From the NCBI GenBank assembly GCA_964612745.1, contig CAZTCH010000005.1, positions 5,448-69,447 on the forward strand: a DNA stretch of 64,000 bases. The letters run 5' to 3'. The notes below the pieces were generated by a model. The model was not told the origin of the DNA, made no database searches, and saw nothing but the letters and a program-made list of their open reading frames with translations. A program made the translations under genes and the position numbers. Below, in pieces: positions 5,554-52,779 of the stretch (position 1 is its first letter; every line of letters starts with the position of its first letter). This DNA comes from an uncultured Candidatus Saccharibacteria bacterium. Lineage in GTDB: Bacteria; Patescibacteriota; Doudnabacteria; UBA920.

Positions 5554-5638
5554 GTTGTGTTGCCCAACGGAAAACACAGACTGTATCTGTATTTTTACCA
5601 ATAATATCTATATACTTATTGTACCATAGGCACACTAT

Positions 5639-6877
5639 ATGAGTATTTCCACCCTTCATGTCGTCATTGGCCCTACAGCCAGTGGAAAAAGTGAATACGC
5701 CGTCACCCTCGCAAGCCAACTGAACGGTGAAATTATTTCGGCAGACTCCCGCCAAGTCTACCGCGGGCTTGATATTGGCAGCGGCAAGGTGGAAGGAGCA
5801 TGGAAGCCAGTACCGAGTAACGAGTTGCGAGTAACGAGAAAGCGGGAAGATGCAACCCCTCAAAACCAATCTAACCTTACATCGAAAAAGAAAACCCTAT
5901 CTAATTTGTCATTGCACAGGCAAGCGCCCTCTAATTTGTCATTGCAGAGGCAAGCTTTCTCTAATTTGTCATTGCGAGGAAGCTTTGTGACGAAGCAATC
6001 TACAGAACCACCCAGTCAAAAGTCGTCACGTCTTAATGTCTTCACGTCAGAAGAAAATTGGAAATTAAAAATTGAAAATTCTCTATACGTTTACAAAAAC
6101 ATTCCACACCACTGCATAGATTTTGTTGACCCCAACTACCAGTACACGGTTGCAGATTTCAAGCGCGACGCAGAACAAGCCATTGCAGACATTGTCGCTC
6201 GCGGAAAAACCCCAATTCTTTGTGGCGGCACTGGTCAATACATAGACGCGATAGTGTTTTCCCAAACACTCCCAGAAGCAAAACCAAATCCTAAGCTCCG
6301 CAAAGAGCTAGAAACTAAATCCATCGAAGAATTATTTGCACTCCTACAAAGCCAAGATCCAGAGCGTGCAGCAAACATTGACCCACATAACCCGCGCAGA
6401 CTCATCCGTGCACTAGAAATTATTCACGAGACAGGCAAGCCGGTACCACCATCAGCAAAGGGTAACCCTTTTGCTGCAAAAGGGTTACCCTTTGTGCCAG
6501 TAATACATTACCTGAACCCACCAAGAGCAGAACTGTACGCAAAAATAGAAACACGACTTCGCGAGCGCGTAGTACAAGGCATGCTCGAAGAAGTAGCACA
6601 GCTACACGCGCAAGGCGTTTCGTGGGAACGCATGGAAGACTTCGGACTAGAATACCGCTACACCTCTCGCTTTCTCCAAGCCCAAAGTATTGCCTCCCCT
6701 CCTAGAATAGGAGGGATTGGGGGTGGTAGATCACACCAAGAAAACCAACCAGCTGAAGCTATTTCTCAGTTATTCCTTGATTCAGCTTTTTTCCAAGAGT
6801 TACTCACCCAAATCAAACACTACGCCAAGCGGCAGCAAACATGGTTCAAAAAGTACGAACCGGCAGAAAAAATATAG
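5639..6877 (+). CDS. miaA: tRNA dimethylallyltransferase carrying an in-frame insertion of about 100 aa
   Basis: The N-terminus VVIGPTASGKSEYAV...ADSRQVYRGLDIGSGK and the later IPHHCIDFVDP...ILCGGTGQY are canonical MiaA. An extra segment (roughly residues 65-165) separates them. Confidence 0.85.
   Translation: MSISTLHVVIGPTASGKSEYAVTLASQLNGEIISADSRQVYRGLDIGSGKVEGAWKPVPSNELRVTRKREDATPQNQSNLTSKKKTLSNLSLHRQAPSNLSLQRQAFSNLSLRGSFVTKQSTEPPSQKSSRLNVFTSEENWKLKIENSLYVYKNIPHHCIDFVDPNYQYTVADFKRDAEQAIADIVARGKTPILCGGTGQYIDAIVFSQTLPEAKPNPKLRKELETKSIEELFALLQSQDPERAANIDPHNPRRLIRALEIIHETGKPVPPSAKGNPFAAKGLPFVPVIHYLNPPRAELYAKIETRLRERVVQGMLEEVAQLHAQGVSWERMEDFGLEYRYTSRFLQAQSIASPPRIGGIGGGRSHQENQPAEAISQLFLDSAFFQELLTQIKHYAKRQQTWFKKYEPAEKI
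5900..5986 (+). repeat. Approximately 30-bp tandem repeat, three copies, inside the miaA coding sequence
   Basis: The copies read TCTAATTTGTCATTGCACAGGCAAGCGCCC, TCTAATTTGTCATTGCAGAGGCAAGCTTTC and TCTAATTTGTCATTGCGAGGAAGCTT. They translate to the SNLSLxRQA repeats. Confidence 0.85.
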
Positions 6878-7027
6878 CTTAAATAAGTGGTTTATTTGCC
6901 AAAACATTGACAAATACTCCTAAAAATGCCAGAATAAATAGTTGCACACCGGTGCAACTATTTTCTGTATGCAGACTTTACGTAAGTAAACCTGCATACA
7001 CCTCAGCAACCCCAGAGGAAAAAAGAA

Positions 7028-7396
7028 ATGGGATACGTAATTTTTGGTGTCTTTGTTGCCGCGTGCCTATATCTCCTCTCGGGGAGAATAGAAAAACAGC
7101 AAAAAGAGGCACAAAAAATAAGAGAGGAGCAGTCAGACAGAGTAGTCTGGCAACTCTCCTCTCGCGCAAAAAGCCAAGTAGAGAGCGCCGTACGGCTAAA
7201 AGAAGCACAGGCTCACTCACGAGCACTAGCTGCGCAAAGAACAATAAGACCAGTTCAAAGCGCTGAAAGAAAAGCGGCGATGCGAACCAAATCAAAAAAC
7301 AAAAGCTCTGCGGCTAAAACAAGCTCAAGAAATAGAAGAGCCGCAGCAGTACAGAAACGTAAAGAAAACTGGAGTTTGTTTGACCACAACTCCTAA
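7028..7396 (+). CDS. Small membrane-anchored Lys/Arg/Gln-rich coiled-coil protein
   Basis: An SD-like GAGGAAAAAAGAA precedes the ATG. There is an N-terminal TM. The competing antisense ORF 6978..7295 is less plausible. Confidence 0.4.
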   Translation: MGYVIFGVFVAACLYLLSGRIEKQQKEAQKIREEQSDRVVWQLSSRAKSQVESAVRLKEAQAHSRALAAQRTIRPVQSAERKAAMRTKSKNKSSAAKTSSRNRRAAAVQKRKENWSLFDHNS

Positions 7397-7432
7397 AAAA
7401 CAAAACCCACAAAATCATACAAAGGAGACGCC

Positions 7433-8455
7433 ATGAGAAAACTAATCATGGACTTATTCCCCACAGACCAAACAATTGCGATTTGGGTCGTGGGAGGATT
7501 GCTTATATTGTCATTAGTTGTTCTTGTGAGAAAGTCACTGACAACGAGACAATACCTGATTGCAGCCCTGATAAGCGTCGGGGCAGTGGTTACATGCAAA
7601 GTGTACTTAGGCACGAACATCCTCTCGCTCGATAACACTTGGCTTACGTTGCATCTACTCGCTGTTGCGTATGCGGCGGCGACCTGCTGGTGCAGCCGTA
7701 CTGGTGGGGGCATGTCCGGGGGAGAAACAAGTACCCTTTTCATCCTTGGACTGTTGGCTGTATTGGGCGTTGGCATGTTTTACCAAAGCACACTCAAAGC
7801 CGGTCTCGCACTTTTTGTTGTATTTGCCATCTTAGTTCCGTACTATCTCAAGTACGGCTACGAAGTAGTTAGTGACGGCTACGCAAACAGGAAGTCAGAC
7901 GTGCCAGTTCAAAAGCTGGCATTCCTAGGAGCAGCACTGCTTCTTGGCGGCGCTCTTCTCTACTACTACGCTGGTGGTGGAGTCAGTGAGAGCATCGGCT
8001 GGGTAGCCGAAAAAACCACCACCATTCTTGGTGGAGCTGCAGAAGGAGCTGCAGGAGCAGCGACGGAAGCAGCCGCCAGAAAACAAACAAAAACTGGTCA
8101 AGGTGGAAGCAAAACCGCCGACACCTCTGATTCACCCACCACCACATCAACAGCACAAATCGGTGTCCAGAGAGAGGCAACACCAGCCGAATACGCACAG
8201 CTTCGCGGCTGTTACAAGTATTCAGAAAACAAGGGTGAAGCAACCCTGCACATATTAAACACAAAAAATGAGCTGGTTCAAAGCAGTATGAAACCAGCGA
8301 AAATCATCGGTTGGGGAGCAAAAGCCCGCGCCAACATGGGCTGGAGCCTTCCATTTATTTTGTTTGGTGAAACAGACAAAAAAAAGGAGTTTCCAATCAT
8401 TTTCAACCTTGCGTCGTGCGGAAAAACATCCGCAAAGGAGGACAATTCATTTTAG
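7433..8455 (+). CDS. Hypothetical polytopic membrane protein with soluble C-terminal domain
   Basis: An AAAGGAGA RBS sits 6 nt upstream. The protein has five or more predicted TM helices and is followed by a rho-independent terminator. Confidence 0.5.
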   Translation: MRKLIMDLFPTDQTIAIWVVGGLLILSLVVLVRKSLTTRQYLIAALISVGAVVTCKVYLGTNILSLDNTWLTLHLLAVAYAAATCWCSRTGGGMSGGETSTLFILGLLAVLGVGMFYQSTLKAGLALFVVFAILVPYYLKYGYEVVSDGYANRKSDVPVQKLAFLGAALLLGGALLYYYAGGGVSESIGWVAEKTTTILGGAAEGAAGAATEAAARKQTKTGQGGSKTADTSDSPTTTSTAQIGVQREATPAEYAQLRGCYKYSENKGEATLHILNTKNELVQSSMKPAKIIGWGAKARANMGWSLPFILFGETDKKKEFPIIFNLASCGKTSAKEDNSF

Positions 8456-8468
8456 TAACAACAACCAG

Positions 8469-8508
8469 AAAGAGCTGAGTGAACCGCAAGGATTACTCAG
8501 CTCTTTTG
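8469..8508 (+). terminator. Rho-independent terminator
   Basis: The hairpin AAAGAGCTGAGT...ACTCAGCTCTTTT directly follows the stop of the 7433..8455 gene. Confidence 0.6.
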
Positions 8509-8612
8509 CATTTTATGTATATATTTCACCCCAGAAATTACCCATACAAAAAGTCTCTGGTCGAAAGCGCACCGCGCTGTCTACCAGAGACTTAGACTGA
8601 CTACTTCATAAA

Positions 8613-9083
8613 CTATTGTGCGCAAAGATTCACCGTTTCCCCTTCCGAGCCGAACCCGCTAAACGAATATCTGGTATTTCTTATGGTCATCTCAAATGAT
8701 TCGCCAGGCATTCGACCAGTGAATTCTGCTCGACGACAGTTCGGATAAATTTGTGTTAAGTCTTGAGGACACGCACGAAATGTCTGCCTGACCTCCCCTA
8801 CAAACAATGCATTGGGCAACTGTTTGTCTTTAGTTGCATAAATAGTTATATGCCCAACCTCTGACAGCTCACCTTTGACCCAAAAGCGATCATCTGGACA
8901 AACTGGTGTTGGAGTTGGTTTAGGCTTGTTATTGGCTCTGGCTGCTGCACCTTGTTGCTGGATTGGCCCAGCAGATTTGACTGTCACAAAACTACGTGCA
9001 GAATTTTTCGGCTCAAGAGCCCCTGCTGTTTTACAGCCAACAAACGCGCAGCACAATGCTGCGAGCATGATTATCTTTGCCAT
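8613..9083 (-). CDS. Secreted lipoprotein
   Basis: A GGAGGAAG RBS is immediately upstream of the ATG at 9081-9083. The signal peptide MAKIIMLAALCCAFVGC is followed by a PT linker. The ORF-track start at 9182 is probably upstream of the true start. Confidence 0.5.
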   Translation of the reverse strand: MAKIIMLAALCCAFVGCKTAGALEPKNSARSFVTVKSAGPIQQQGAAARANNKPKPTPTPVCPDDRFWVKGELSEVGHITIYATKDKQLPNALFVGEVRQTFRACPQDLTQIYPNCRRAEFTGRMPGESFEMTIRNTRYSFSGFGSEGETVNLCAQ

Positions 9084-9375
9084 ACTTCCTCCTGTGGCAA
9101 AATCGAACAGTATACAAACTTGCTGCACTTCTGTTAACACTGCGTTAACCAGCACAACTGGTACAGTATGCCACACCCCCACAAATTTTCAACCCCCATT
9201 TAGCAGAAAGCACCAAATAACAATTTTCAAATCCTAAACAAGCACCAATATCCAAATGTTAAAAATTCCAAATCTCATTTTTTGTTTAGAACTTTGTCTC
9301 CTATTTTGAATATTGGAACTTATTTGTTATTTGGAGTTTGTGATTTGGAGTTTGCTAAAGTTTGGCGTGAAGACC

Positions 9376-10542
9376 TTAAGACGTGAAGACGTGACGACAC
9401 CGCCTTTCTTGCGTTTCAAAATTCACTTCCACCAACCCAAATTTTAACCCATACCCATTATGCCATTCGTATGTGTCCAGAAACGACCAGTACACATAGC
9501 CACGCACGTCTACCCCTTCGGCTCTGGCTTGCAGTGCCCAATGTACGTGCTCTGCAATAAACCTTTGGCGCATGTCGTCACGAGCATTGGCAATACCATT
9601 TTCGGTAATGTAAATTGGTTTTTTATATTTCCCAATTTGTTTTAACAGATAGTACAGTCCTTTAGGATACGTTCTCCAGCCCATGTCATTTTTGCACGCT
9701 TTCTTAGTAGTTCGCCCGCGTACAGATACGGAGTCAAAGAAGTAGTAATTAAGTCCGATTATGTCTAAATGGTCCAGAATCTTTTCTAAAATATATTCGT
9801 TACCTATGTAACTCAAAGCCCGCACCACGGCTCTATCCAATAGATTACTATAGTACGGTTCGTAGAATACATTATTTTTCACAATGCCAACTTGGGCGCT
9901 CGGAAGACACTTCTTTACCTGCTCGTACATAGAGCGGTGAGAAGCTAAAATATTCCGCAGTACGCGTGGCACTAACAACACATTCTTTTTAAATGGCGGG
10001 TGCAGGCCACGAACATAGCTCATGAGCAGCACCACTTCTGGTTCGTTTATAGTAAAGAATATATCCACCTCAGAACCAAGCAGCTCTGCCACCACCTTCG
10101 CATAGTTACCCAACCACTCTGCTATGCGTGGATTTTCCCAACCACCCTTTGCTGCCACCCATTGTGGCAACGTAAAATGCTGTAACGTCACCATGCGTAC
10201 GAGCCCATGCCGCTTCATGTTTTGCAACATACGTCGGTAGTGCTCTACAGATTCCATATCAAGCCTTCCCTCTTCTGGCTCTATGCGTGACCATTCAATG
10301 GCAATGCGAAATACATCAAGTCCCATGTCTTGTGCCAACGCAAAATCTGTTTCGTATCTGTTGTAAAAATCTGCTGCCACACCCGAAACTGGCAACTTGC
10401 CCTGCTGCTCCGCGTACCACCAGTCACTGTGCACATTGTCCCCTTCTACTTGGTGCCCGCTCACTCCCGCGCCAAACAAAAAGCCTTCGGGTAGGGCACC
10501 CATAAATAGTTTTTCAGAATTTGTATTCGTAACTGTTTTCAT
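9376..10542 (-). CDS. Glycoside hydrolase family 1 beta-glucosidase
   Basis: The GH1 catalytic motifs TINEPEV (acid/base) and YITENGIA (nucleophile) are both present. The likely start is the internal MKTVTNT. Confidence 0.8.
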   Translation of the reverse strand: MKTVTNTNSEKLFMGALPEGFLFGAGVSGHQVEGDNVHSDWWYAEQQGKLPVSGVAADFYNRYETDFALAQDMGLDVFRIAIEWSRIEPEEGRLDMESVEHYRRMLQNMKRHGLVRMVTLQHFTLPQWVAAKGGWENPRIAEWLGNYAKVVAELLGSEVDIFFTINEPEVVLLMSYVRGLHPPFKKNVLLVPRVLRNILASHRSMYEQVKKCLPSAQVGIVKNNVFYEPYYSNLLDRAVVRALSYIGNEYILEKILDHLDIIGLNYYFFDSVSVRGRTTKKACKNDMGWRTYPKGLYYLLKQIGKYKKPIYITENGIANARDDMRQRFIAEHVHWALQARAEGVDVRGYVYWSFLDTYEWHNGYGLKFGLVEVNFETQERRCRHVFTS

Positions 10543-10645: not shown

Positions 10646-12250
10646 CTACGATTGCAATTTCTGCTTTAAAATTTCGTTTATCACGCTTGGATTAGCTTTG
10701 CCTTGCATTTTCTTCATAACCCCACCAACCAGCGCTCCAAATGCCCGCTCGTTACCATTTTTATAATCTTCTGCCGCCTTCGCATTTTCTTCCAACACAG
10801 CGACTATTGCTTCTTCTATTGCTGCCGTATCACTCACCTGTTCGAGTCCCAAGTCTTTCACAAGCTCACTTGGATCCCCGCCAGTTTCGAGCATTTTCTT
10901 GAACACCTGTTTTGCTGCAGCAGAAGAAATAACACCAGAGTCTATCAGCTTGACTAACTCTGCTAAATTTTCTGCTGTCACACGAGAGTCTGCTGGAGCA
11001 CTATGCGCGCTGTTTAGTGCGGCGGAAAAATCCTGCAAACACCAGTTCGCTGCAAGCTTTACTAACTTTTCCTTACTACTGACCGCTTTCTGGCTACTCT
11101 GCTCCGAAAGAATCCATGCGTCCAACTCACTCACAACATCTTCAAAAAAGAATGCCAACTCTTTCCAGTTCAACAAGTTTTCTATATCTGCTTCTGGTAA
11201 AGCGTATTCCTCGCTAAACCGCAGCCGTTTTGCGTTTGGCAACTCCGGAAGCGACCGACGAATTTCCTCTACGTACGCTGCAGTAAACTGAAGTGGAGGC
11301 AAATCTGGCTCTGGCAAATACCGGTAATCATTCGCCTCTTCTTTGCTTCGCTGCTCCACTGTCTGGTTCAATTTTTCGTTCCAACCCATGGTCACCTGCT
11401 TGGGAGTTTCACCACGGAGACGCATTTCCGACTGGCGCGCAATTTCGTAGGTAATCGCCTGCTCTACAAATTTAAATGAGTTAATGTTCTTTACTTCACA
11501 TTTATATGGCGGCAACCCTTGTTCGCCTGGCAAGCGCACCGAAATACTTGGTTCGCAACGCATGCTCCCTTTTTCCATATCTGCATCGCTTGCGCCTACA
11601 TAGCGCGCAATACGCTGGAGCTCTTCCAAGTATTTCCGAGCTTCTTCTGCAGATTCAATAACTGGGTGGGTCACAATTTCTAAGAGCGGTGTACCCGCAC
11701 GGTTGTAGTCAACCAAGCTGTAGGAAAGACCTTCGGGATGCATATTCTTTCCTGCGTCCTCTTCCAAATGAGCCCGTTGAATAAGCACCCGTTTCGTGCG
11801 AGTACGAGGTTTCGAAACCCCACTAGCATCGTTCGTAGCGCCAGCGAATTTGCCCGCCGAAGCTTCTAGCGAAGGCTGGGCTGTTTGCTCGCTATCAGTT
11901 ACTTGAATTTCGATAAAGCCTTCTTTAGCAATTGGATGGTCCAACTGTGAAATCTGGTACCCTTTTGGTAAGTCAGGGTAAAAATAGTGTTTGCGATCGA
12001 ACTGACTCCATTCATCTATAGAACAGTTCAGTGCCAACCCCATTTTGACGGCAAGCCGAATTGCCTCTTCATTTGCCACAGGCAAAGACCCTGGCTGCGC
12101 AGTCACCACTTCATCGACATTCACATTCGGCTGCTCCATATCTAACCTGTTGGGAGCACTACTAAACATCTTCGACTTCGTTTTCAGTTGAATGTGAACC
12201 TCAAGACCAATAACGGGTTTTAGTAAATCAGACATAGTTCTAATTGCCAC
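10646..12250 (-). CDS. gatB: Asp/Glu-tRNA(Asn/Gln) amidotransferase subunit B, with an approximately 30-aa insertion
   Basis: VIGLEVHIQLKT...FDRKHYFYPDLPKGYQISQ...IQRAHLEEDAGK is canonical GatB. There is extra sequence between IEIQV and RVLIQRAHLEEDAGK. Confidence 0.9.
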   Translation of the reverse strand: MAIRTMSDLLKPVIGLEVHIQLKTKSKMFSSAPNRLDMEQPNVNVDEVVTAQPGSLPVANEEAIRLAVKMGLALNCSIDEWSQFDRKHYFYPDLPKGYQISQLDHPIAKEGFIEIQVTDSEQTAQPSLEASAGKFAGATNDASGVSKPRTRTKRVLIQRAHLEEDAGKNMHPEGLSYSLVDYNRAGTPLLEIVTHPVIESAEEARKYLEELQRIARYVGASDADMEKGSMRCEPSISVRLPGEQGLPPYKCEVKNINSFKFVEQAITYEIARQSEMRLRGETPKQVTMGWNEKLNQTVEQRSKEEANDYRYLPEPDLPPLQFTAAYVEEIRRSLPELPNAKRLRFSEEYALPEADIENLLNWKELAFFFEDVVSELDAWILSEQSSQKAVSSKEKLVKLAANWCLQDFSAALNSAHSAPADSRVTAENLAELVKLIDSGVISSAAAKQVFKKMLETGGDPSELVKDLGLEQVSDTAAIEEAIVAVLEENAKAAEDYKNGNERAFGALVGGVMKKMQGKANPSVINEILKQKLQS

Positions 12251-14569: not shown

Positions 14570-14619
14570 AGAGCTAGTATACAAAAAAAGGGCGCCCACT
14601 ACAAGGAGGCTATAATGCA

Positions 14620-15075
14620 GTAACGAGTAGCTAGTTGCTAGTTACGAGAAAGAAATAAGTCGTCACGTCTTAAAGTCTTAACGGCTTCACACCAGAAAAA
14701 CAGTAGAGTTAGATGGGCACCATCTGACACCATGCTCGTAGTTATGGTTTTGAGGGTACATCAACACAAGTAAATATAGAACTTACATGTCAGATGGTGC
14801 CCATCTAACGACAGAAAACTAGAAACTCAAAAGTCAAAACGCAAAACTTCAGGTCAAAACTGTAAACTTTAAATTCTGACCAGTTTTTAGTTTGCAGTTG
14901 AAGCTCCAGTCCGCCAACTGACGGATTTGAACTTTGTTATTTGTTTTTTAAAAAGCCGGAGCACCTGCTCCGGCTTTAAACTATTCTCTATTCTCCCCGC
15001 ACCTTGCGGAGCCCCGATGCGGCATCGGGGCTACTCTCTTCTCTTTCTCGTAACTAGCAACTAGCTACTCGTTAC
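14620..15075. mobile_element. 456-bp non-autonomous TIR-bounded repeat unit with perfect 33-bp terminal inverted repeats
   Basis: GTAACGAGTAGCTAGTTGCTAGTTACGAGAAAG at 14620-14652 is the exact reverse complement of 15043-15075. A MITE-like unit is nested inside. Confidence 0.7.
14709..14808. mobile_element. Approximately 100-bp MITE-like element with 21-bp TIRs (TTAGATGGGCACCATCTGACA)
   Basis: TIRs lie at 14709-14729 and 14788-14808. A second full copy is at 48892..48990. Confidence 0.7.
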
Positions 15076-15095
15076 TTAATCCGCCTACCGGCGGA

Positions 15096-18000
15096 TTACT
15101 GCACTTCCTTCAAAAATGGTACCGGCAACCCACGGAAGAACAACACAAGCGGTGTACGAAGGGAGCAAGACAGCGGATACGAATCACAATTAATCTCTTC
15201 ACCTGCTGCAGAAACTGGATCAGTGTAGGAAATTCGCGCTACATTACTAAACCGGAATATGGAAGCCGTGGTCCCTGTGGGGCCTTTGGCATATGCAGTA
15301 TAGACAATACTCAAATACTCATTTTGGGCGAGCCCACCAGCTTTCGCTTGTGATTCAATTGCAAATGTAATCTGCTTCAGAGTGGGATTGTAGACAACGC
15401 TGTTCAACACATAATCACCCCTATCGCATGGGATTCCATTACAATTGAGTGTAACCGTTTTGTCATCCCATCCGGCTGATGGCGGACCCAAGTTAGTAAG
15501 TGTATCCACCACAGTAAAGTCACCACCGACCGTCGCAGTACCAGAATTTACAATGTGTATAGCAAACTCAATCGGACTCCCCTCTGCTACGCTCGCAGAG
15601 CCAATGTCTGCTTCGGCAATCCCATCGGTAGGATTATACGACACCGCACGACCATTCACCGAGACTATATCTTTGTTGGACAAACTTAAATCAGCCCATG
15701 GCCCAGGGAGTGACCCCGTGAGCACTTCTGTATCGAGCAATGTAAACGCTGTGTACTTTGCTAAAACAATATCTATATATGCTGGTACACTGTTCTGCGA
15801 ATCAACTGTGTACGTCACTGCATGCGTGTGTGAGCTGGTAGACCCGTTAGCAGAAAAGCCGCTCCTTACTAAATTATTATTTCCGGGAGCACCAGAAGTT
15901 CCCACCACCGAGCCGCCATGGTTGTGCGTTGCAGAGCCACCGGTAGAGCCAAAACTAGCGCTACCACGAAGCATTCGCTGATAATAGCTACTAGAGGAAC
16001 CAGACACTGTTGTCCAACCAGAAGGCACAGCACCAGTGAAAAAGGCAATCATCCCAGCTGGTGCTGCGGTATCTGCTGTGGCCTGTCCAAAAATTACATC
16101 AATATAAGGTGGTGTGTTAGAAGAGGCAGTCAAAGCAGTGCTCGCAATGGTGTGAGAATGACCGGTTGCTACCGTGGTGTTATTCGCAGTATCACGAAGA
16201 GCCCCAGAATCTACACTAGAAGTGGCAGTAAACGTGTGGGTGTGCGTAGCAGAACCACCAGTGTTTGCATCTGGCCCACCCCGCAAATATGTCCCGTCCA
16301 AAGATGAATACCGAGTCCAACCCGAAGGAACACTGGCGTCAAACAACGCAATGGCTCCAGCTGGAATGCTTGGAGGATTGGTGCGACTAATAAATTTGAG
16401 GTGTTTGTATGGAGGAATGATACTGTCAGTCGAGGACGTCACATTACTCCACGTGTGCGTATGCGAATTAGTTGGATAAAATCCGCCACTAGAGCTTTCG
16501 CCAGTGCTTTGTGATGCTCCAGCAGTTTGGGATTGGTACGTTAAGGTGTGCGAACCAGTATCAGTGCCACCTGTAGCTCCGTAAGAATCAGAAGCACGTG
16601 GAAACTTCCCATACAATGGGTCGCCCACGTTACACGAAATACATGTCCAACCAGAAGGCACCGCACCGGAAGCGGTATCCCAGAGCAACACGACTGTGCC
16701 CGTTAGGCTTCCACCAGGGAGAGTAAAGCAGTCCGCTGCAGCATATAATTTAAACTGATACTGCTCGACAACACTCCCACTTGCAGACACACTGCGTGGT
16801 AACCCAGTTGGGTTGTTTGCAGCACACCCAGAATTAAATAGAGTGTACGGTCCGTATGTGGCAGTATTTGGATCGTACTGACTCACTAACACCTGCGCGT
16901 AAGTAGTATTCGTCGTAGACCACGATACTTGTGGTGTTGGACTACAACTGGTCGCAGGTGGCGTAATAGCACAAGGACTAGAAGGAGTAATGGTAATGCT
17001 ACCTGTGGTGGTGCACCCACCGCACGCATTTTGTGTATACGATTGTGTGTCAGAATCTGTGCCATATGCATTGGTACAGACAATAGTGTAGGTATGACCG
17101 CCCACAGTCGGCACTAAACTTTCTGTATTCGGACCAGCCGCTGTAGCCTTTGACCCTGTCCAATCGTTCGTGCTGCTACTCGCAACACAAGACGTTGGCG
17201 CGTTGGTAGTTGTCCAACTGAGTGTGGTGCTTGCAGGGTACGTACCGGATGTTGGATTCACACTCAGCACCACATCGGGCACCGGAGACACATTACGCGT
17301 AAAATTAGCCACGCCACACCATGTGTTACCAACGGTAGCACTGCTCATGTAAATATGCACATTTATAGTTCCATATTCTGGACTGCCCACTTTGTGACTC
17401 GCTAGATTCACAGACGCGCGCCATGTGCCACCGCCTAAGTTTGTACCAGCATACCAAATAATATCATCTTGCCCACCAGTGTCTCCCCATGTTGGGAACA
17501 CCACCGCAGTCGCACCGGTTACCCCGTAGGCATATACATAAAAAGTTCCGGAAGTACTACCCGTACTTGTCGCTTCTGGCGCGCTGCTCGTACACGCTGG
17601 CGTTTCACCATTTACCAAAACTGTTACCGAATCTGTCGCGGTACCGCCTGCACCCGTACAACTAATAGTAAAAGTAGTTGCGCTGGTCAGTACGCTCGAT
17701 GGGTCAGAGCCAGATGTAGCACCGCCGGTCGAAAACCCAGGACCTTGCGTTGCAGTACAGGAGTCCACAAACCCAGAATTCCACGAGAGTGTTGTTGCAG
17801 CATTGTAGTTCACTGGGTTTGGGCTCGCAGATAAGTTTACATATGGGCCCGCAGGGTTCACGGTTACATCACCACAATGCGCAGACTGCCCGGCGCTCGT
17901 GGAAACATCCACACTAAATTGCCCAGCATTGCCATATTGAGCCCCAATAATTGCCCCACTACCCCACGTACTTGTTGCACCAGGTGTGGACCACGTAAAA

Positions 18001-26471: not shown

Positions 26472-27015
26472 TGTTGGAATAGACAAATATAAAAGAGTTC
26501 GACCTAGGGCGAACTCTTTCGGTAAACTTTTCTCATCTGGGTATGAGTGCGTATCTGATATATATCAGATAAGAAAAGTTTTGTAGCCCCTCCTCGAAAT
26601 TTAGAGCTACGTTTCCAAGTTTTTGCCCGCACAAACGGCGAGCGGCAATAATTGTGTTTTTACCCTTTACAAGAGCGAATTTTAGTAACTTGAGAAAGCT
26701 ACAAAAACTTTTTTGAGTACACTGGCACTCAATCGCTCTCCGAAAAGGAGAAATATTTGGCAAAAAGCCAAAAACTAAATAAAAACACTAAAAAAACAAT
26801 AACTTGGATATTTAGTATACCAGCGTTCAGGTAAATAGCCAAGTGAAGAAACAGGAAACATGAGAGCATATAAGCATGCAAACATCTAAACAAAATACGT
26901 AAAATGCAGATGGTGCCCATCAACACCTATGTTGATGGGCACCATCTGCAAACAAGATAAATGCGAAAGCCATTCTTACTAGCAAAAATGCCCTAGGCCA
27001 ACTCAAACACCCGAA

Positions 27016-28220: not shown

Positions 28221-28658
28221 AGATGCAAAACTCCTTTTTCTGCAGAAGTTGACTTCCAACCCCACCCTTCAAATACAAGCAAGGAGGGAATGATTTGTCT
28301 ATACAGAGCAAAGCCCTGCAAGACAAAAGAGCAAATCTAAAGCTGGCCGAGCTAGCTTTAGATAAGAAAATAAACTTTTCACTACAAAACAGGGGTTACT
28401 TCTTCAAAAGAAGGGAGCAATTACAGCTCGTAACTTGAAATCGCAGATGAAAAATAAATTAACTTGCACGCATTGTATACCCGCTGGGAAAAACGTGCAA
28501 GGCTTTTCAATAGAACACAAATACCCCTTAAAATTGAGTGTTTAATTGTACATTTGTTATTTCCACAAAAGTTATCCACTGGAGGCATGCAAACATGTAA
28601 GCATTAGACCATGTAAATAAGAAGTACACAGCCCAAGCAGCCGTATTTTCCTGTTTTT

Positions 28659-28746
28659 ATGCTTCCATGCTTACATGTTTCTGTGTTTTGATGTTTTAAT
28701 GTTTACATGCTTACATGCTTAAATGTTTTGATGTTTAGATGTTTCA
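28659..28746 (+). repeat. Array of eleven 8-bp tandem units ATGYTTNN
   Basis: The units read atgcttcc atgcttac atgtttct gtgttttg atgtttta atgtttac atgcttac atgcttaa atgttttg atgtttag atgtttca. Confidence 0.85.
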
Positions 28747-29347: not shown

Positions 29348-29392
29348 AATAGCACAGATACACAGATAAAACCGATTACTCAGATACCTACT

Positions 29393-29761
29393 ATGGAAAT
29401 TCCACCAGAAGAATTTACTTATAAGGTTATACGAGCGGTGTACGATGTATACAATGAGCTCGGTTTTGGCTATCAAGAAAAATACTACTACCGAGCATTA
29501 AAGTTAAAATTTACCTCACTAGGCTTTTCAGTAGAAGAGCAATTGCTTACCAGGCTTATGTTTGAAGGCAAAAGCATCGGTCGGTATTATTTAGATTTTC
29601 TACTGAACGGCTGTTTAGTAGTAGAACTAAAAGTAGCAACACAGGTATACCAAAAACATATCAATCAAGTATTGGGCTACCTAAAAGCAAACAATCTAAA
29701 ACTGGGAATCCTTGCAGTATATACTTCCCATAAAGTTATAATTAAACGGGTCATCAATTGA
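29393..29761 (+). CDS. GxxExxY-family protein
   Basis: The 122-aa size and the GxxExxY motif within ELGFGYQEKYYYRAL support this call. Confidence 0.6.
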   Translation: MEIPPEEFTYKVIRAVYDVYNELGFGYQEKYYYRALKLKFTSLGFSVEEQLLTRLMFEGKSIGRYYLDFLLNGCLVVELKVATQVYQKHINQVLGYLKANNLKLGILAVYTSHKVIIKRVIN

Positions 29762-29844
29762 TTCGTGTTATCAGTGTAATCTGTGTATCTGTGGTTATAT
29801 AAAATGCATTTAAATCATGCTCTTTTAGTGGTTCGTGGACAATT

Positions 29845-31292: not shown

Positions 31293-31840
31293 ATACCAAT
31301 ACTATACAATAACTAGTTCCTAGTAACTAGTCGCGAGTTGCGAGAAAAACAGAACAGTCGAACGTCTTCATGTCTTAAGGTCTTCACGCCAGATTGTGAG
31401 AAGCACCAAACAATTACAAGTTTAAGTCAAAAATCAAAACTCAAAAGTCAAAACTTCAAATCAAAACTTTAAACTTTAATGCAATTCAGTTTTGAGTTTA
31501 TAGTTGCAGTTTTGCGTTTTGATTTTTGACTTTATAGTTCTTTCTTATGCTGTGCTTGTGATTTGGAATTTCTTCTTGCTACCCCCTAATTCCTAACTCC
31601 TAATTCCCAGCATTTGAAAGCTCTGTCTACTCTCTATTCTCTACCCTCCCTCCTACGCTAAAGCTTCGGCGGACTCCGCTTTTCGAAGTCTCTCTAATTC
31701 TACTATTTCTTCTCACTCTTCTATTTCTTCTTTCCACCCCTTTCTTGACAGTTATCACTCTCGTTGTTAGACTGACAATACATACGTACCCTACCCCAAA
31801 AATATCTGCTGGTACTGTGGCACTATAATAGAAACACCTT
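31293..31840. repeat. Mosaic intergenic repeat locus (modules M2, M1, the AAAACTCAAAAGTCAAAAC periodic block, CCTAATTCCTAACTCC and the GAGAATAGAG block in reverse orientation)
   Basis: It shares modules with 14600-15095, 45348-45780 and 48427-49091. Positions 31628-31740 are the reverse complement of 48480-48600. Confidence 0.75.
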
Positions 31841-39075: not shown

Positions 39076-39163
39076 GGAGAGGTCGCATAGTGGTCTAGTG
39101 CGGCGGTCTTGAAAACCGTTGTACCGAAAGGTACCGAGGGTTCGAATCCCTCTCTCTCCGCCA
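39076..39163 (+). tRNA. tRNA-Ser (anticodon TGA), long variable arm, CCA encoded
   Basis: GGAGAGGTCGCATAGTGGTCTAGTGCGGCGGTCTTGAAAACCGTTGTACCGAAAGGTACCGAGGGTTCGAATCCCTCTCTCTCCGCCA. Confidence 0.9.
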
Positions 39164-39361
39164 CAGATAGGTTGGTCAAATATGGTCAATCTATCTGTGT
39201 TAAATATAAGTCTGGTAGTTAAACCAAAAATAGTAAAGTAGGGTTTATTTAAAAAGAAGACATAATCAAAAAATATTCTAGCTGTAAAGCAACTATCTTT
39301 TGGTCTGGAAATCAAAACTAAGTAATTTTTTGTGCTTCAAAAAGTGTAAAATTTGAAATAT

Positions 39362-40408
39362 ATGGCTAACAAAAGTAAAAAAATAGAAGTTATTGATCTT
39401 TTCAGTGGAGTGGGAGGTTTAACGTATGGATTAAGAAAATCAGGATTATCAGTTTTAGCTGGTGTTGATAATGATGATTCATGCGCATATGCGTATGAGA
39501 AGAATAATAAAGCTAAATTCATCTCCGCTGATATTTCTGATTTTGATTTTAAAAAATTGAATAAAATTTACTCTAAAGATAGTGTTCGAGTGCTCGTTGG
39601 GTGCGCCCCATGTCAACCGTTTTCTTCTCATGCTTTTAAACTACGTAAAGACGCAAGTGATGTACGGTGGAATTTGCTAGATCATTTTATTCGCGGAGTC
39701 AAAGTCGTAAAACCAGACATTGTTTCAATGGAGAATGTCCGAGGTGTGACAAAGACTGATGTTTTTAAAAATTTTGTCAGCGAACTTGAAAAGCTTGGTT
39801 ATAAAGTTGATTGGAAAGTTGTATACGCTCCCAACTATGGTGTCCCTCAAAATCGTAGCCGCCTTATCCTGCTTGCTTCAAGGCTTGGTGAGATTGCGAT
39901 ACCAAAGGAAACTCATACGAAAGAAAATTATGTCACGGTCGGAGACATAATTTGTGAACTACCGAGTATTGAAGCAGGAGAAGTATCAAAGCAGGATCAA
40001 TTACACCAAGCAAAGAAACTTGAACCTATTAATAAAAAGCGGATTTTACAATCAAAGCCTGGCGGTACTTGGCGAGATTGGGATAAGAGCCTTTTACCAA
40101 ATTGCTACAAAAAAGACAGCGGGCAAACGTACACGGCTGTGTATGGGCGGATGAGATGGGAGGATGTATCACCAACCATTACTACACAATTTACCAGTTA
40201 TGGATCTGGCAGGTTCGGGCATCCAACGCAGAATCGAGCACTTTCCATCCGCGAGGGTGCGTTATTACAGACATTTCCCATTGATTACGATTTTGGGAAC
40301 TTTCCTGCCGCAAAGCTGAGTAGACACATTGGAAATGCAGTACCACCGCAATTAGGAATGGTTATTGGTAGGCAGATAAAGAAGCATCTTGAAACATATG
40401 GAAAGTGA
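39362..40408 (+). CDS. DNA (cytosine-5)-methyltransferase
   Basis: All C5-MTase motifs are present: I FSGVGG, IV GCAPCQPFS, VI MENVRG, VIII QNRSRLIL, X IGNAVPPQL. The ORF-track start at 39353 is a TTG; ATG at 39362 is more likely. The gene is AT-rich relative to its neighbours. Confidence 0.9.
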   Translation: MANKSKKIEVIDLFSGVGGLTYGLRKSGLSVLAGVDNDDSCAYAYEKNNKAKFISADISDFDFKKLNKIYSKDSVRVLVGCAPCQPFSSHAFKLRKDASDVRWNLLDHFIRGVKVVKPDIVSMENVRGVTKTDVFKNFVSELEKLGYKVDWKVVYAPNYGVPQNRSRLILLASRLGEIAIPKETHTKENYVTVGDIICELPSIEAGEVSKQDQLHQAKKLEPINKKRILQSKPGGTWRDWDKSLLPNCYKKDSGQTYTAVYGRMRWEDVSPTITTQFTSYGSGRFGHPTQNRALSIREGALLQTFPIDYDFGNFPAAKLSRHIGNAVPPQLGMVIGRQIKKHLETYGK

Positions 40409-42982: not shown

Positions 42983-43030
42983 CTGTTTAGATGTTTCTAT
43001 GTTTACATGTTTGCATGTTTAAATGTTTCC
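42983..43030 (+). repeat. Second ATGTTTNN 8-bp tandem array (six units)
   Basis: The units read ctgtttag atgtttct atgtttac atgtttgc atgtttaa atgtttcc. The array lies 70 bp upstream of tRNA-Arg. Confidence 0.8.
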
Positions 43031-43097: not shown

Positions 43098-43174
43098 GTT
43101 TTCGTAGCTCAACTGGATAGAGCGCAGCCCTCCGAAGGCTGAGGTTGTGGGTTCAAATCCCGCCGAGAACACCA
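43098..43174 (+). tRNA. tRNA-Arg (anticodon CCG)
   Basis: GTTTTCGTAGCTCAACTGGATAGAGCGCAGCCCTCCGAAGGCTGAGGTTGTGGGTTCAAATCCCGCCGAGAACACCA. This is a 77-nt cloverleaf with a G-U pair in the acceptor stem. Confidence 0.85.
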
Positions 43175-45347: not shown

Positions 45348-45780
45348 GAGCTAGTTGCGAGTAACTAGTTACGAGTTGCGAGAAAGACAAAGAAGTCGTC
45401 ACGTCTTAAAGTCGAACGGAGAAGGAAAAAGAGAATAGAGAGTAGAGAATAGAGGGTAGTAAGACAGGAATTAGGAGTTAGGCTTTAGTCAGCACCAAAT
45501 CTCAAGCACGAAATAACAAACAAATTCCAATCCGCCAGCTGGCGGACAAAATCCCAAACAAATACACCAACAACTAAAAAATCAAAACTCAAAAGTCGAA
45601 ACTTCAAATCAAAACTGTAAACTGCAATGCAATGCAGTTTTGACTTTATAGCTCTTTTTTATTTCGTTCTTGTAATGTGGGGTTTCCCAATAAATACAGT
45701 AGGAGTTGGAAAAATTAAAAATTGAAAATTGAAAATTGAAAATTTATCCTTCCTATTCTCTATTCTCTACTCTCTACCCT
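45348..45780. repeat. Mosaic intergenic repeat locus between recG and radA
   Basis: The modules are M2 (45350-45390), M1 (45393-45420), GAGAATAGAGAGTAGAG (45425-45462) with its inverted partner at 45751-45785, GGAATTAGGAGTTAGG, CCAATCCGCCAGCTGGCGGAC, the AAAACTCAAAAGTCGAAAC block and GAAAATTGAAAATTGAAAATT. Confidence 0.75.
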
Positions 45781-48426: not shown

Positions 48427-49091
48427 TTATTTTTCGCTAGCCTACAATACATTTAGTATAGCATGGGAGCAATGAGGAGGATAGAAGAAATAGAAGAGTG
48501 AGAAGAATTAGAAGAATTAGAAGAATTAGAAGAATTAGAGAGGAATTTTGAAAGCGGAGCCCGCCGAAGCTTTAGCGTAGGAGGGAGGGTAGAGAATAGA
48601 GAGAATGTAGATTGCTAAGTGCTAAGTGCTAAGTGCTAAGGGCTATGGGCTAAGAAAGAGTGTAATTTTCAATTTTTAATTTTTCCTACTTGTTACTGCT
48701 TTTTAAAAATTCCAAATCACAAGCACGAAATAACAAATAAATTCCAATCCGCCAGCCGGCGGACGAAAATCCCAAACAAATACATTTTTAACTCAAAAGT
48801 CAAAACTGAGAGGTCAAAACTTCAAATCAAAACTGTAAACTGCAATGCAATTCAGTTTTGCGTTTATAGTTGCAGTTTTGCGTTCCTGTCGTTAGATGGG
48901 CACCATCTGACACAGTGCTCGCAATTTTGGTTTGAGGGTGTATCGACAGAAGTAAATATAAATCTTGTATGTCAGATGGTGCCCATCTAACTCTCCCGTT
49001 TTTCTGGCGTGAAGACCTTAAGACACGAAGACATGACGACTCATTATTCTTTCGTTTGACGTGAAGACATGAAGACCTTCGACTTCTTCCC
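48427..49091. repeat. Mosaic intergenic repeat locus (largest copy) including a MITE-like unit
   Basis: It contains (AGAAGAATT)n, the GAGAATAGAG block, (GTGCTAA)4, CCAATCCGCCAGCCGGCGGAC, the AAAACTGAGAGGTCAAAAC block, the MITE at 48892-48990 and M1 copies at 49005-49080. Confidence 0.75.
48892..48990. mobile_element. MITE-like element, second full copy (TIR TTAGATGGGCACCATCTGACA)
   Basis: The TIRs are identical to the 14709..14808 copy. The internal sequence is about 80% similar by eye. Confidence 0.7.
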
Positions 49092-52055: not shown

Positions 52056-52066
52056 ACAAATATTCC

Positions 52067-52759
52067 TTATTGGGCTGTTCCAACCACCTTAATATCGCCA
52101 AGGCTTTCACTGTTGAGCGCTGGTGCCGATTCAAAATTGTACGAATTATAATACAACTCAATCAGCGCCCCTGTATCGAGCCGTACCACTCGTAAGCCCA
52201 ACCCAGAGAGGTTGCTTACCACAGAATCCACTCGCTGCTGTAATTGCTCGCTGTAGTGCTTAATATTTTCTATCTTTTTGTTCGCCTGTGTTGCTCCACT
52301 ACCACCAAAAAGACCGGAAAACAAACCGCTCGAGGCAGGAGTAACCGTTTGGGCAAGCGGCACCACAATATAAAACTCTTTGCTCATGACGTTGGCGTCA
52401 TTTACCAGCTCAGAAATAAAATCAATGTAGTACTGTGCTTGCATGCGCAATAGTTCATTTTCCAAACGCTGTGTTATCAGTTGCAATTTGTTGACATAGT
52501 CAGCTACATTCAACTTCCTGCTTTGCATTAAAATCTGTATGGGAAAATCCAAAGAATTCAGGAACCGTTGGTACCCAAAGATTATGCCGTTTTGCTCGTC
52601 TTCATTTTTTAAATCAAAATTGGTAGATCCCACTGCTAAAACAGCTCGCAACGTTCCGTCTTGCATGATTACAAGATTGTCGCGAATCTCTGAGATGCGA
52701 AGCACATGTCCTGTCGGTGTGCCTGCATGTGTGGTTGTTTTTTTGCTTTCAGATGCCAT
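52067..52759 (-). CDS. Hypothetical cytoplasmic protein (T4SS-cluster member)
   Basis: It is a 230-aa ORF tightly packed between the VirB3-like and VirB4-like genes. Confidence 0.4.
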   Translation of the reverse strand: MASESKKTTTHAGTPTGHVLRISEIRDNLVIMQDGTLRAVLAVGSTNFDLKNEDEQNGIIFGYQRFLNSLDFPIQILMQSRKLNVADYVNKLQLITQRLENELLRMQAQYYIDFISELVNDANVMSKEFYIVVPLAQTVTPASSGLFSGLFGGSGATQANKKIENIKHYSEQLQQRVDSVVSNLSGLGLRVVRLDTGALIELYYNSYNFESAPALNSESLGDIKVVGTAQ

Positions 52760-52779
52760 AAAGTAAAACTCTCTTCGGG

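Follow-up and report, generated by a model that had tools for sequence, protein, structure and literature searches.

In-frame repeat modules of intergenic type within loop inserts of a patescibacterial miaA gene

We analyzed a 64,000-nucleotide stretch of DNA (the window) from an uncultured member of the Patescibacteria and found that one insert within the miaA gene contains repeat modules shared with the intergenic mosaics, ordered and oriented as in a compact intergenic composite. Two further sites in the gene also hold in-frame inserts. We consider it likely that three permissive surface loops of MiaA act as sinks for the short-repeat repertoire of this genome. By this explanation, the insert DNA is a set of tolerated, fast-turning-over repeats in permissive loops.

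The miaA gene (5639..6877, plus strand) encodes a tRNA dimethylallyltransferase of 412 amino acids, as assigned from the list of open reading frames, Pfam, PDB and AF2. Its product matches the Pfam family IPPT at 1.7e-56 and otherwise only IPT and AAA_33, while the best match to a MiaA protein in the PDB is at 1.6e-40. Despite the inserts, the predicted core superposes on solved MiaA, and its target-normalised TM value against E. coli MiaA (3foz_A) is 0.73. The features expected of a MiaA protein are present, namely the IPPT domain, the P-loop, the DSxQxYRG motif and the fold of solved MiaA. Neither the catalytic P-loop nor the DSRQVYRGLDIG motif varies in the orthologue alignment, the strands GxW and xYK that border the first insert are invariant in 27 CPR orthologues, and dN/dS values for the core are 0.11-0.22. 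An earlier reading of this DNA, made from the sequence only, had called the gene essential. However, E. coli and Salmonella can do without miaA, and the label is therefore an overstatement.

The first insert (insert 1; 5804..6085, plus strand) consists of 282 nucleotides, or approximately 90 extra codons, between two conserved beta-strands. Orthologue alignments, pLDDT and the open frame place it at residues 56-149, in the loop between strands GAWK (54-57) and LYVYK (148-152). Solved MiaA structures align only to residues 6-52 and 154-328 of the product, which therefore has about 100 residues where MiaA of Bacillus halodurans has five; the sequence-only reading had likewise counted about 100 extra codons between conserved MiaA blocks. 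The alignment of orthologues delimits the insert in the same way, with most of 120 orthologues having only 6-10 residues at this position (site 1), where the window protein is the longest of all. The loop-length modes over these orthologues are 6 or 10, 14, and 27 residues, and the distributions are tight with long tails. The reading frame had been noted to continue through the insert, and indeed only one of its six frames is free of stop codons, the one that is used (P = 0.0025 versus shuffled sequence).

A HMMER search with the insert 1 peptide against 1.84e9 representative proteins returned a single match, an unrelated tandem-repeat protein of 1019 amino acids, and the insert is therefore not a shared domain. 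A word-indexed protein search with the 93-residue insert peptide returned nothing, its own parent included, probably because of low complexity. At the nucleotide level, one 10-nt inverted pair is present in 5790-6100, and the folding of insert 1 as RNA is no better than that of shuffled sequence (z = +0.67); an RNA structure was rejected on the latter result. An intron, an intein and the target of a diversity-generating retroelement were also rejected, given that 5600-6900 has no Rfam match at E<=1, the Pfam results, and differences between M1 copies that are not adenine-specific.

Intergenic mosaics of the window contain matches to three modules of insert 1, and one of these modules also matches the 3' end of a gene. 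Heptamer array A (5808..5842, plus strand) consists of AGTAACG/AGTTGCG units with GAGAAAG at its end, and local alignment pairs it with 14618-14652, 15076-15043 (minus strand), 31315-31347 and 45358-45386. This array had been overlooked by the sequence-only reading and is a third shared module. The M1 module (6013..6051, plus strand) is a short array of GTCTTCAC/GTCTTAAN octamers identified by motif search and local alignment. Its 27-mer GTCGTCACGTCTTAATGTCTTCACGTC at 6022-6048 recurs with three or fewer mismatches at 9364-9390 (minus strand) and 14659-14685 (plus strand), with no recurrence in 100 shuffles, and further copies near 31359, 45393 and 49005 are recovered by gapped local alignment (E 8e-6 to 2e-3). 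Thus all five sites for which the motif had been claimed do share it with miaA. Heptamer array B (6053..6080, plus strand; TRF and local alignment) is composed of GAAAATT units and encodes NWKLKIEN. It matches 45711-45744 and 48664-48682 (minus strand), including exact 19-mers, which confirms the earlier pairing of the segment after M1 with approximately 45715-45745 and 48662-48685. The best matches of insert 1 modules within the window have E values of 8e-6 to 3e-5.

The matching intergenic regions are themselves mosaics. Alignment and an inverted-repeat check reveal a MITE-like composite of 458 bp (14619..15076) with perfect 35-nt terminal inverted repeats, which consist of heptamer array A. 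Its interior contains M1 (14657-14685), a hairpin with a 22-bp stem (14708-14809), heptamer arrays and a terminator-like hairpin, and no target-site duplication is obvious around it. By local alignment, array A is combined with M1 upstream of recX (31313..31393, plus strand) and downstream of recG (45351..45413, plus strand), where array B then lies at 45704-45745. Another mosaic (48664..49085, minus strand) holds array B at 48664-48690 and M1 copies at 48999-49045 and 49050-49085. The M1 copy at 9363..9398 (minus strand; open reading frame and alignment) forms the last approximately seven codons and the stop codon of a glycoside hydrolase family 1 (GH1) gene. An M1-pattern scan of the genome collection gave matches from one species representative, a sister MAG, in which four of the five exact matches are intergenic. 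The sister MAG also has compact intergenic composites of about 100 nt (e.g. L009 7388-7490 and L008 317-375), and A, M1 and B have the same order and orientation in insert 1 as in these.

Within the 64-kb window, modules are found inside a gene only in miaA. The proposal that housekeeping proteins, in the plural, are colonized is thinly supported, the other cases in 64 kb being the GH1 3' end and a weak module match in a 30-amino acid insert of gatB. A metagenome scan with the 16-mer WACGAGTTGCGAGWAA is unspecific; it returned at least 120 loci, and the matches listed are mostly chance; among these listed matches, about ten are true AGTTRCG heptamer arrays on other contigs, none of them in miaA.

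Insert 1 also contains a 30-bp minisatellite (5870..5986, plus strand; TRF and self-alignment) with the unit TCTAATTTGTCATTGCAGAGGCAAGCKYYC, present as a degenerate copy upstream of the array (approximately 5870-5899), two good copies and a shortened third. The repeat at 5900-5986 had been described as perfect and of three copies. However, TRF on 5900-5975 gives a period of 30, 2.5 copies and 91% matches, 4 of the 30 positions distinguish copy 1 from copy 2, and two 1-nt gaps are required to align copy 3; a perfect tandem repeat was rejected on TRF and self-alignment. Outside miaA, neither the 64-kb window nor the compared loci contain a copy of the 30-bp unit, and the array is therefore not established as intergenic-repeat DNA, which it had been taken to be. 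It is an internal minisatellite rather than a dispersed repeat, with head-to-tail units whose number varies between strains, as in a VNTR. A relative 98-99% identical to the window (L001) differs in insert 1 by having one unit fewer, and one approximately 90% identical (L002) has one extra unit and is without heptamer array A. A CATTGCGAGG...GACGAAGCAATC unit closes the minisatellite (5970..6000, plus strand; pattern search), and the pattern has 0 chance matches in the window. The 30-bp array looks like tandem duplications of the 5' half of this unit. Site 3 of L005 miaA contains this pattern in frame, and the genetic code suggests that peptides of both its orientations are present in the inserts of other orthologues. 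Motif resemblance is what suggests that the 30-bp unit, and the hairpin of insert 3 described below, belong to repeat families.

Two further in-frame insert sites in miaA (6456-6494 and approximately 6686-6772) had been overlooked by the earlier reading. Insert 2 (6456..6494, plus strand; self-alignment) is a 39-nt palindrome, 97% self-complementary, with 15-17-bp arms AAAGGGTAACCCTTT, and is read in frame as KGNPFAAKGLPF. L012 miaA carries this AAAGGGTWACCCTTT palindrome in frame at the corresponding site, and relatives of the palindrome at L007 6931-6970 and 7598-7638 and at L010 5945-5984 lie directly after stop codons and are flanked by A/T runs. As in terminator-like or REP-type families, the GC-containing stem is conserved, the loop is variable, and intergenic copies carry a T run. 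In miaA the T run is truncated (TTTG), and a terminator scan did not call the palindrome there. At site 2, L001 and L002 have an octamer array instead of the palindrome, with 35% identity versus 98-99% in the flanks. This allele, a AAACATNN octamer array also carried by L006, matches the window at 42987-43028, 28652-28744 and 26871-26892. Site 2 has two unrelated alleles, each of an intergenic family. Insert 3 (approximately 6686..6772, plus strand), recognized from orthologue loop lengths and pLDDT, adds approximately 29 residues; the spacing from E338 to Y395 is 27 residues in 93 of 120 orthologues and 56 in the window protein. It contains a hairpin, CCCTCCTA-GAA-TAGGAGGG, at 6697-6715, with no second copy in the window or the compared loci.

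In orthologues with 53-57% protein identity, arrays A and B are found at an unchanged codon position. Array A is identical at 24 of 24 nucleotides in L004 and 23 of 24 in L005, and array B, which L004, L005 and L006 all carry at this site, is identical at 24 of 24 to that of L006. By comparison, orthologues that share modules have 64% nucleotide identity overall and 43% at third positions, and the best-conserved eight-codon windows at the nucleotide level are NWKLKIEN and SNELRVT. The set of modules at site 1 differs, with B alone in L006, and A and B without M1 in L004 and L005. A clean 30-nt hairpin insertion interrupts the GAAAATT array in L133 and L134 and is absent from L004 and L005; its junctions are unreadable because they lie within heptamer repeats. 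Since A and B share a codon position in diverged orthologues, the insert must be partly old or continually homogenised. The sequence-only reading had held that an insert shared with unrelated lineages would point to a lineage-specific domain rather than a repeat. Such sharing does extend to diverged orthologues, but within one CPR clade only. The identity at 24 of 24 nucleotides fits concerted evolution or recurrent acquisition, and would also fit a function at the nucleotide level. Collinear in-frame inserts occur in independent assemblies from different samples.

In the AF2 model, residues 64-145, 274-281 and 354-367 have pLDDT below 50 and coincide with the three inserts, and two short stretches outside the inserts (39-44 and 47-49) are also below 50. 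Strands are predicted on both sides of insert 1. The insert thus lies, as had been anticipated, in a loop of MiaA, between conserved strands and predicted to be disordered. Comparison of the window with L002 gives dN/dS of 0.11 for the core, 0.50 for insert 1 and 0.73 for insert 3, and the contrast with the core is significant by Fisher's test (p = 0.004 for insert 1; p = 0.001 for inserts 1 and 3 pooled). Protein-level constraint is relaxed in the inserts, and the core is under purifying selection. Given the model, the additional residues most likely form a disordered loop that is functionally neutral, and the GAAAATT-encoded NWKLKIEN may have been co-opted to extend a beta-hairpin.

We suggest that insert 1 originated as a copy or recombination product of a compact composite with the order A, spacer, M1, spacer, GAAAATT array. 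A small hairpin-type unit would have become nested in it and then expanded to the 30-bp minisatellite. A terminator-like palindrome makes up insert 2, and insert 3 holds another small hairpin. Entry and turnover of repeat DNA could proceed by recombination, gene conversion or template switching among dispersed copies, with replication slippage responsible for changes within arrays. Selection would then act as a mere filter that passes lengths divisible by three, the absence of stops and positions tolerated by the fold. Classical cut-and-paste transposition into miaA is not indicated.

The insert had been attributed to a selfish mobile element, and a classical non-autonomous element of the MITE or RPE type, moved by a transposase acting in trans and surviving because it was in frame, would have the merit that array A supplies the terminal repeats of the 458-bp element. 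With its terminal repeat and M1, the left end of the 458-bp element lines up collinearly with the outer parts of insert 1, and intragenic in-frame MITEs and RPEs are documented (PMC10969869). We nevertheless regard this origin as unlikely. Array A is single in miaA, with no inverted partner and no terminal inverted repeats in 5790-6100, and no target-site duplication is readable; no allele of high identity lacking insert 1 is present among the compared sequences. No transposase, reverse transcriptase or REP-associated/Y1 transposase was found by Pfam in 41 of the 52 open reading frames of the window, nor a transposase in the Pfam annotations of the first ten (nine of these ten are covered by the locus annotations; 62505-63086 and 63174-63944 were unscanned). 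Insertion by a mobile element can therefore only be inferred. Moreover, the modules are single or variously combined in orthologues (B in L006, A and B in L004/L005), a pattern that a single transposing unit does not predict.

The conservation of the modules might instead reflect a lineage-specific functional extension, in which the loop or the peptides NWKLKIEN and SNELRVT were selected in CPR MiaA, for example for contact with tRNA or a partner, and the intergenic similarity is secondary. Both peptides keep their position in orthologues of 53-57% identity, where they are the best-conserved windows, and the bordering GxW and xYK strands do not vary in the 27 CPR orthologues. However, module conservation reaches synonymous sites, which protein function leaves unexplained, and the two peptides are missing from most of the 120 orthologues. 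The region is predicted to be disordered, its dN/dS is 0.5, L002 lacks heptamer array A entirely, and coincidence would hardly make three modules collinear with intergenic composites. Such an extension is in our judgment very unlikely. Gene decay by repeat invasion, or chimeric assembly at repeats, is largely refuted and highly improbable. The dispensability of miaA in model bacteria and the tendency of repeat-rich DNA to be mis-assembled would allow it, but the reading frame is intact over 412 codons, the used frame alone is open, and independent assemblies agree. A pseudogene was rejected on the invariant P-loop and DSRQVYRGLDIG motifs and the low dN/dS of the core, and an assembly artefact on the agreement of assemblies.

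A bolder extension of the preferred reading, in which the loops are sinks for short repeats, is a 'cassette' type of repeat mobility in CPR. Short arrays and hairpins would shuttle between intergenic mosaics and a few defined codon positions of conserved genes without terminal inverted repeats, duplications or a transposase, probably via gene conversion or template switching. We think this doubtful. If it is true, modules would stay identical in nucleotides while the synonymous sites of orthologues saturate, and a module at a given codon could be exchanged for a different one, as seen at site 2. These observations are equally compatible with a function of the modules at the nucleotide level within the mRNA or DNA, for instance in pausing, in attenuation or as a landing pad for recombination.

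If the loops of MiaA are indeed sinks, reduced CPR genomes tolerate the spilling of intergenic repeats into conserved enzymes, and a few loops are recurrent landing sites where the nesting, expansion and exchange of modules keep pace with the divergence of strains. Inserts of this type make proteins longer, give rise to spurious low-complexity 'domains', and can cause errors in orthology assignment, in the estimation of dN/dS and in predicted structures from MAGs. They also provide a natural map of permissive sites in MiaA, and the contrast of saturated synonymous sites with identical modules offers a tractable test case for gene conversion among dispersed repeats in uncultured bacteria.

The in-frame spread of repeats into genes is best known from Rickettsia, and we found nothing specific in the literature on intragenic repeats of CPR/Patescibacteria. 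Rickettsia palindromic elements (RPEs) are short dispersed repeats that are both intergenic and in frame within unrelated conserved genes, where they are tolerated by the fold and add a peptide (PMC10969869). The parallel drawn by the sequence-only reading may hold for the occurrence of both intergenic and in-frame genic copies. It fails for structure, since insert 1 is not palindromic and folds no better than shuffled sequence. An RPE is a single unit of approximately 100-150 bp that has the potential to form a palindrome and encodes a conserved peptide typical of its family, whereas insert 1 combines tandem arrays with units of 7, 8 and 30 nt, without a stable fold and with only the one 10-nt inverted pair; insert 2 alone is palindromic. 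Unlike the RPE cases, one gene here has three hot spots at which several modules have been nested or exchanged. Dispersal in the 64-kb window amounts to plentiful intergenic copies and internal genic copies only in miaA. The comparison is by description, and the host here belongs to the Patescibacteria rather than the Rickettsiales.

The inserts work like RPEs or intragenic MITEs and are not members of those families. Intragenic MITEs (enterobacterial ERIC/RU, Coxiella QMITE1 and those of Anabaena) provide in-frame fusions, C-termini and stop codons. Similarly, M1 gives the GH1 gene its stop codon, and the composite at 14619-15076 has perfect terminal inverted repeats, while the miaA copy has neither these nor a target-site duplication. 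Heterocystous cyanobacteria reportedly contain STRR heptamers and other small dispersed repeats, mostly in intergenic positions. The likeness to these lies in mosaics of tandem heptanucleotides with nested hairpins, here the 30-nt hairpin in the GAAAATT array; this link too is by description, and similar AGTTRCG arrays are seen on other metagenome contigs. The family of insert 2 resembles REP elements and the SPRITE of Streptococcus pneumoniae in its conserved 15-17-bp arms and variable loop. In contrast to those terminator-like hairpins, insert 2 lies inside a reading frame, with its T run truncated, in both the window and L012 miaA. A minisatellite of variable copy number nested in an intergenic MITE is described for Porphyromonas gingivalis (PMC4596501), and the 30-bp array, which in miaA is nested in the stretch from heptamer array A to M1, appears similar in arrangement. 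As far as that account describes it, the P. gingivalis array is intergenic, whereas the miaA array is in frame, with ten codons per unit.

The miaA gene (5639-6877, + strand) encodes a tRNA dimethylallyltransferase of 412 amino acids (Pfam IPPT, 1.7e-56). MiaA structures in the PDB match it to 1.6e-40, but these matches are confined to residues 6-52, 154-328 and 389-405. The protein thus has about 100 residues at a place where Bacillus halodurans MiaA has five. The segment between the invariant residues W55 and Y152 usually has 6 or 10 residues among the best 120 orthologues, with a long tail, and the 96 residues in the window form the longest. The host is an uncultured CPR bacterium, the closest labeled database relatives being Candidatus Doudnabacteria or Patescibacteria, and the order holB, cupredoxin-like gene, miaA is kept in relatives. 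To call miaA essential, as the sequence-only reading did, overstates the constraint, because E. coli and Salmonella can do without it.

Insert 1 (5804-6085) is modular. At its 5' end is a heptamer array, here called array A (5808-5842), of AGTAACG/AGTTGCG units ending in GAGAAAG. It is followed by a spacer and a degenerate 30-bp unit, then by three more such units, two of them good and the third shortened, which continues into a CATTGCGAGG...GACGAAGCAATC unit (5970-6000). After a short spacer come M1, an array of GTCTTCAC-type octamers (6013-6051), and, at the 3' end, an array of GAAAATT (6053-6080). RNA folding of the insert is no better than that of shuffles (z = +0.67), there is no Rfam match, and the insert peptide has no relatives among 1.84 billion representative proteins, bar one spurious repeat protein.

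Most statements of the sequence-only reading were borne out. The M1 27-mer lies exactly at 6022-6048, with two further copies at three or fewer mismatches against 0 in 100 shuffles, and gapped alignment recovered all five sites listed for it (near 9365, 14657, 31359, 45393 and 49005) and, next to the last, another at 49050-49076. The GAAAATT array (6054-6080) likewise matches 45711-45744 and 48664-48682, exact 19-mers included, and the reading frame is kept, being the sole stop-free frame of six, which occurs in 0.25% of shuffles. Array A, which that reading did not mention, is a third shared module, matching 14618, 15043 (- strand), 31315 and 45358. The 30-bp repeat fared differently. It had been described as perfect, but TRF gives 2.5 copies with 91% matches, 4 of the 30 positions distinguish copies 1 and 2, and copy 3 aligns with two 1-nt gaps. 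Nor was it an intergenic repeat in the sequences compared, where it was found solely inside miaA of the window's species group.

The arrangement of the shared modules recurs outside genes. In a sister metagenome-assembled genome (MAG; GCA_964652865.1), about 90% identical to the window in DNA, the M1 pattern occurs five times, once in miaA and four times between genes. Two of the intergenic copies (7388-7490 of sister locus L009, and 317-375 and onward of sister locus L008) each belong to a compact composite, about 100 nt long, in exactly the order and orientation of insert 1: array A with GAGAAAG, about 10 nt, M1, about 8 nt, and the GAAAATT array. Array A and M1 also occur together in the window at 14619-14700, 31336-31393 and 45367-45413. 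This shared order and orientation argues that insert 1 is this intergenic composite with about 190 bp nested in it. One intergenic element of 458 bp (14619-15076) is bounded on either side by array A, in inverted copies that match perfectly over 35 nt, and looks MITE-like; no inverted partner of array A is present at the miaA insert. The same element contains a long hairpin (14708-14809; 22-bp perfect stem, 58-nt loop), seen again at about 48893-48990, which had no Rfam match at the gathering threshold.

We read a modular series at this position from the DNA of eight orthologous loci. In L006 the GAAAATT array stands alone, in L004 and L005 it is preceded by array A and a different spacer, and L133 and L134 add to this a clean 30-nt hairpin inside the GAAAATT array. 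L001, an allele 98-99% identical to the window, lacks one 30-bp unit, and the L002 allele lacks array A and has one extra 30-bp unit. Other orthologues carry unrelated filler peptides (HPERSEGS, IASLPAVARNDE, PPKAGPPLAE, LARHSLDGGG) that look like translated small hairpin repeats. From the genetic code we infer that IASLP...ARNDE is the CATTGCGAGG...GCAATC unit in reverse-complement orientation.

Two further sites in miaA carry inserts. At site 2 (6456-6494) the insert is an in-frame palindrome of 39 nt. An orthologue of only 53% identity (L012) also has it in frame at that codon position, where the arms are identical but the loop is not. All its copies in the sister MAG are intergenic, lying directly after stop codons with A and T runs alongside, in the manner of a bidirectional terminator. 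The L001 and L002 alleles have a wholly different sequence at site 2, AAGCATGCAAACATAGAAACATATAAGCATGG, with 35% identity against 98-99% in the flanks for L001. This allele matches octamer arrays between genes of the window (42987-43028, 28652-28744 and 26871-26892). The two sequences that alternate at this codon position thus both come from the intergenic repeat repertoire. The insert at site 3 (about 6686-6772) is 29 residues long, is absent from 93 of the best 120 orthologues and contains the hairpin CCCTCCTA-GAA-TAGGAGGG; L005 has the CATTGCGAGG...GCAATC unit in its place.

The modules are far more alike than the genes that carry them. Between the window and L004, L005 or L006, miaA DNA is 64-65% identical (43-44% at third codon positions), whereas array A agrees with L004 at 24/24 nt and with L005 at 23/24, and the GAAAATT array agrees with L006 at 24/24. 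The array windows are among the best-conserved 8-codon windows of miaA, ranking top against L004 and L006 and tying with the catalytic motif (23/24) against L005. That synonymous sites are identical too cannot be put down to protein function. It could reflect concerted evolution with the numerous intergenic copies, repeated acquisition, recombination between lineages, or a function at the nucleotide level. Recombination certainly occurs among miaA alleles, since L134 shares the 5' two-thirds of L004 yet differs in the 3' third. The alleles are recombinant mosaics: in alignment A3, which compares L134 (669-1682) with L004, L133 and L005, the 3' part of L134 is divergent from about column 820, is without insert 3 and resembles the orthologue protein P0008.

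Changes in 30-bp copy number, shown by strain comparison, would arise by slippage or unequal exchange. Recombination, gene conversion or template switching between dispersed copies would best account for how modules arrive and are replaced, as suggested by the varying combinations in which modules occur across loci, by the lack of terminal inverted repeats and of readable target duplications at miaA, and by the lack of a transposase, reverse transcriptase or Y1 transposase in the ORFs scanned (41 of 52 by Pfam, and nine of the first ten through a precomputed Pfam list only, the last two ORFs lying outside the scan). Selection would afterwards filter for multiples of three, stop-free sequence and a permissive position.

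An AlphaFold2 model built with 27 orthologues as input (mean pLDDT 71) has segments with pLDDT below 50, of which the long or insert-sized ones (64-145, 274-281 and 354-367) coincide with the three inserts; two other such stretches, both short (39-44 and 47-49), fall within the conserved core, ahead of insert 1. Insert 1 is bordered by strands 54-57 and 148-152, and the core can be superposed on structures of E. coli MiaA with tRNA (3foz_A, target-normalised TM 0.73). Between the window and L002, dN/dS is 0.11 for the core, 0.50 for insert 1 and 0.73 for insert 3; the Fisher test gives p = 0.004 for insert 1 by itself and p = 0.001 when insert 3 is pooled with it. The inserts behave like loops that are tolerated and under weak constraint, with the rest of the enzyme under purifying selection. 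The readings of the insert as a domain and of miaA as a pseudogene were rejected.

Self-comparison of the 64 kb found array A, M1 and GAAAATT modules inside no gene other than miaA. A glycoside hydrolase family 1 gene takes its last seven or so residues (RRCRHVFTS) and its stop codon from an M1 copy (9363-9398, - strand), and its sister-genome orthologue ends differently, in MRRRRNV, inside its own M1 copy. The gatB gene (10646-12250) has a lineage-specific in-frame insert of 30 amino acids at a beta-hairpin tip (about 11801-11890, - strand; IEIQVTDSEQTAQPSLEASAGKFAGATNDASGVSKPRTRTKRVLI vs IEITKADGTKKKILI in relatives), of which 24 nt match the intergenic module at 48559-48581 at 22/24, a match that is weak alone (E = 0.14). 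AGTTRCG-type heptamer arrays, interspersed with heptamer arrays of other kinds, occur on unrelated metagenome contigs (L018, L042, L045, L062, L093, L094 and L109 among the matches listed), so the unit is not confined to the window's species group.

Other features accompany these. A small PDDEXK_3 nuclease-family gene (29393-29758; PF13366, 2.2e-26), wedged between the genes for LemA and an M48 peptidase, has short arrays in inverted orientation on either side (CACAGATA x2 at 29353-29368, TATCTGTG x3 at 29769-29793); this region (29353-29793) has the look of a small gene cassette whose ends are arrays. The same inverted arrays lie at 2402-2427 and 2442-2467 with no gene between. A four-helix-bundle gene of the 23S_rRNA_IVP family (PF05635; 12312-12683, - strand) lies between gatB and gatA. 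In the relative L006 a PF05635-type gene (16103-16471) interrupts gatA, leaving Amidase ORFs of 225 aa and 242 aa, and a second one adjoins holB. Adjoining miaA, the stretch 7009-9070 (about 2 kb; hypothetical ORFs of 122, 340 and 189 aa) is a strain-variable island: no similarity to the sister genome could be detected in its DNA, although both flanks are about 90% identical. A 483-bp tandem duplication (61239-62151, - strand; 1.9 copies, 81% matches) lies inside ORF 60227-62467, whose 746-aa product has no Pfam match. C-5 DNA methylase and HATPase_c_3 genes (39353-42101) follow shortly after tRNA-Ser(tga) (39076-39163) and precede tRNA-Arg (43098-43174), and, further on, TraG/VirB4-like ATPase and PrgI-family genes (50202-53259) indicate a type IV secretion-like cluster.

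In the literature searched we found no report of such repeat inserts in genes of CPR bacteria. Their building blocks appear similar to the heptamer (STRR) mosaics and small dispersed repeats of cyanobacteria. Interest would be greater if module homogenisation and codon-position-specific replacement reflect a dedicated mechanism. Although palindromy, which defines Rickettsia palindromic elements, and terminal inverted repeats, which define MITEs, are absent from insert 1, the inserts share their way of working with Rickettsia palindromic elements and intragenic MITEs (summarised in PMC10969869).
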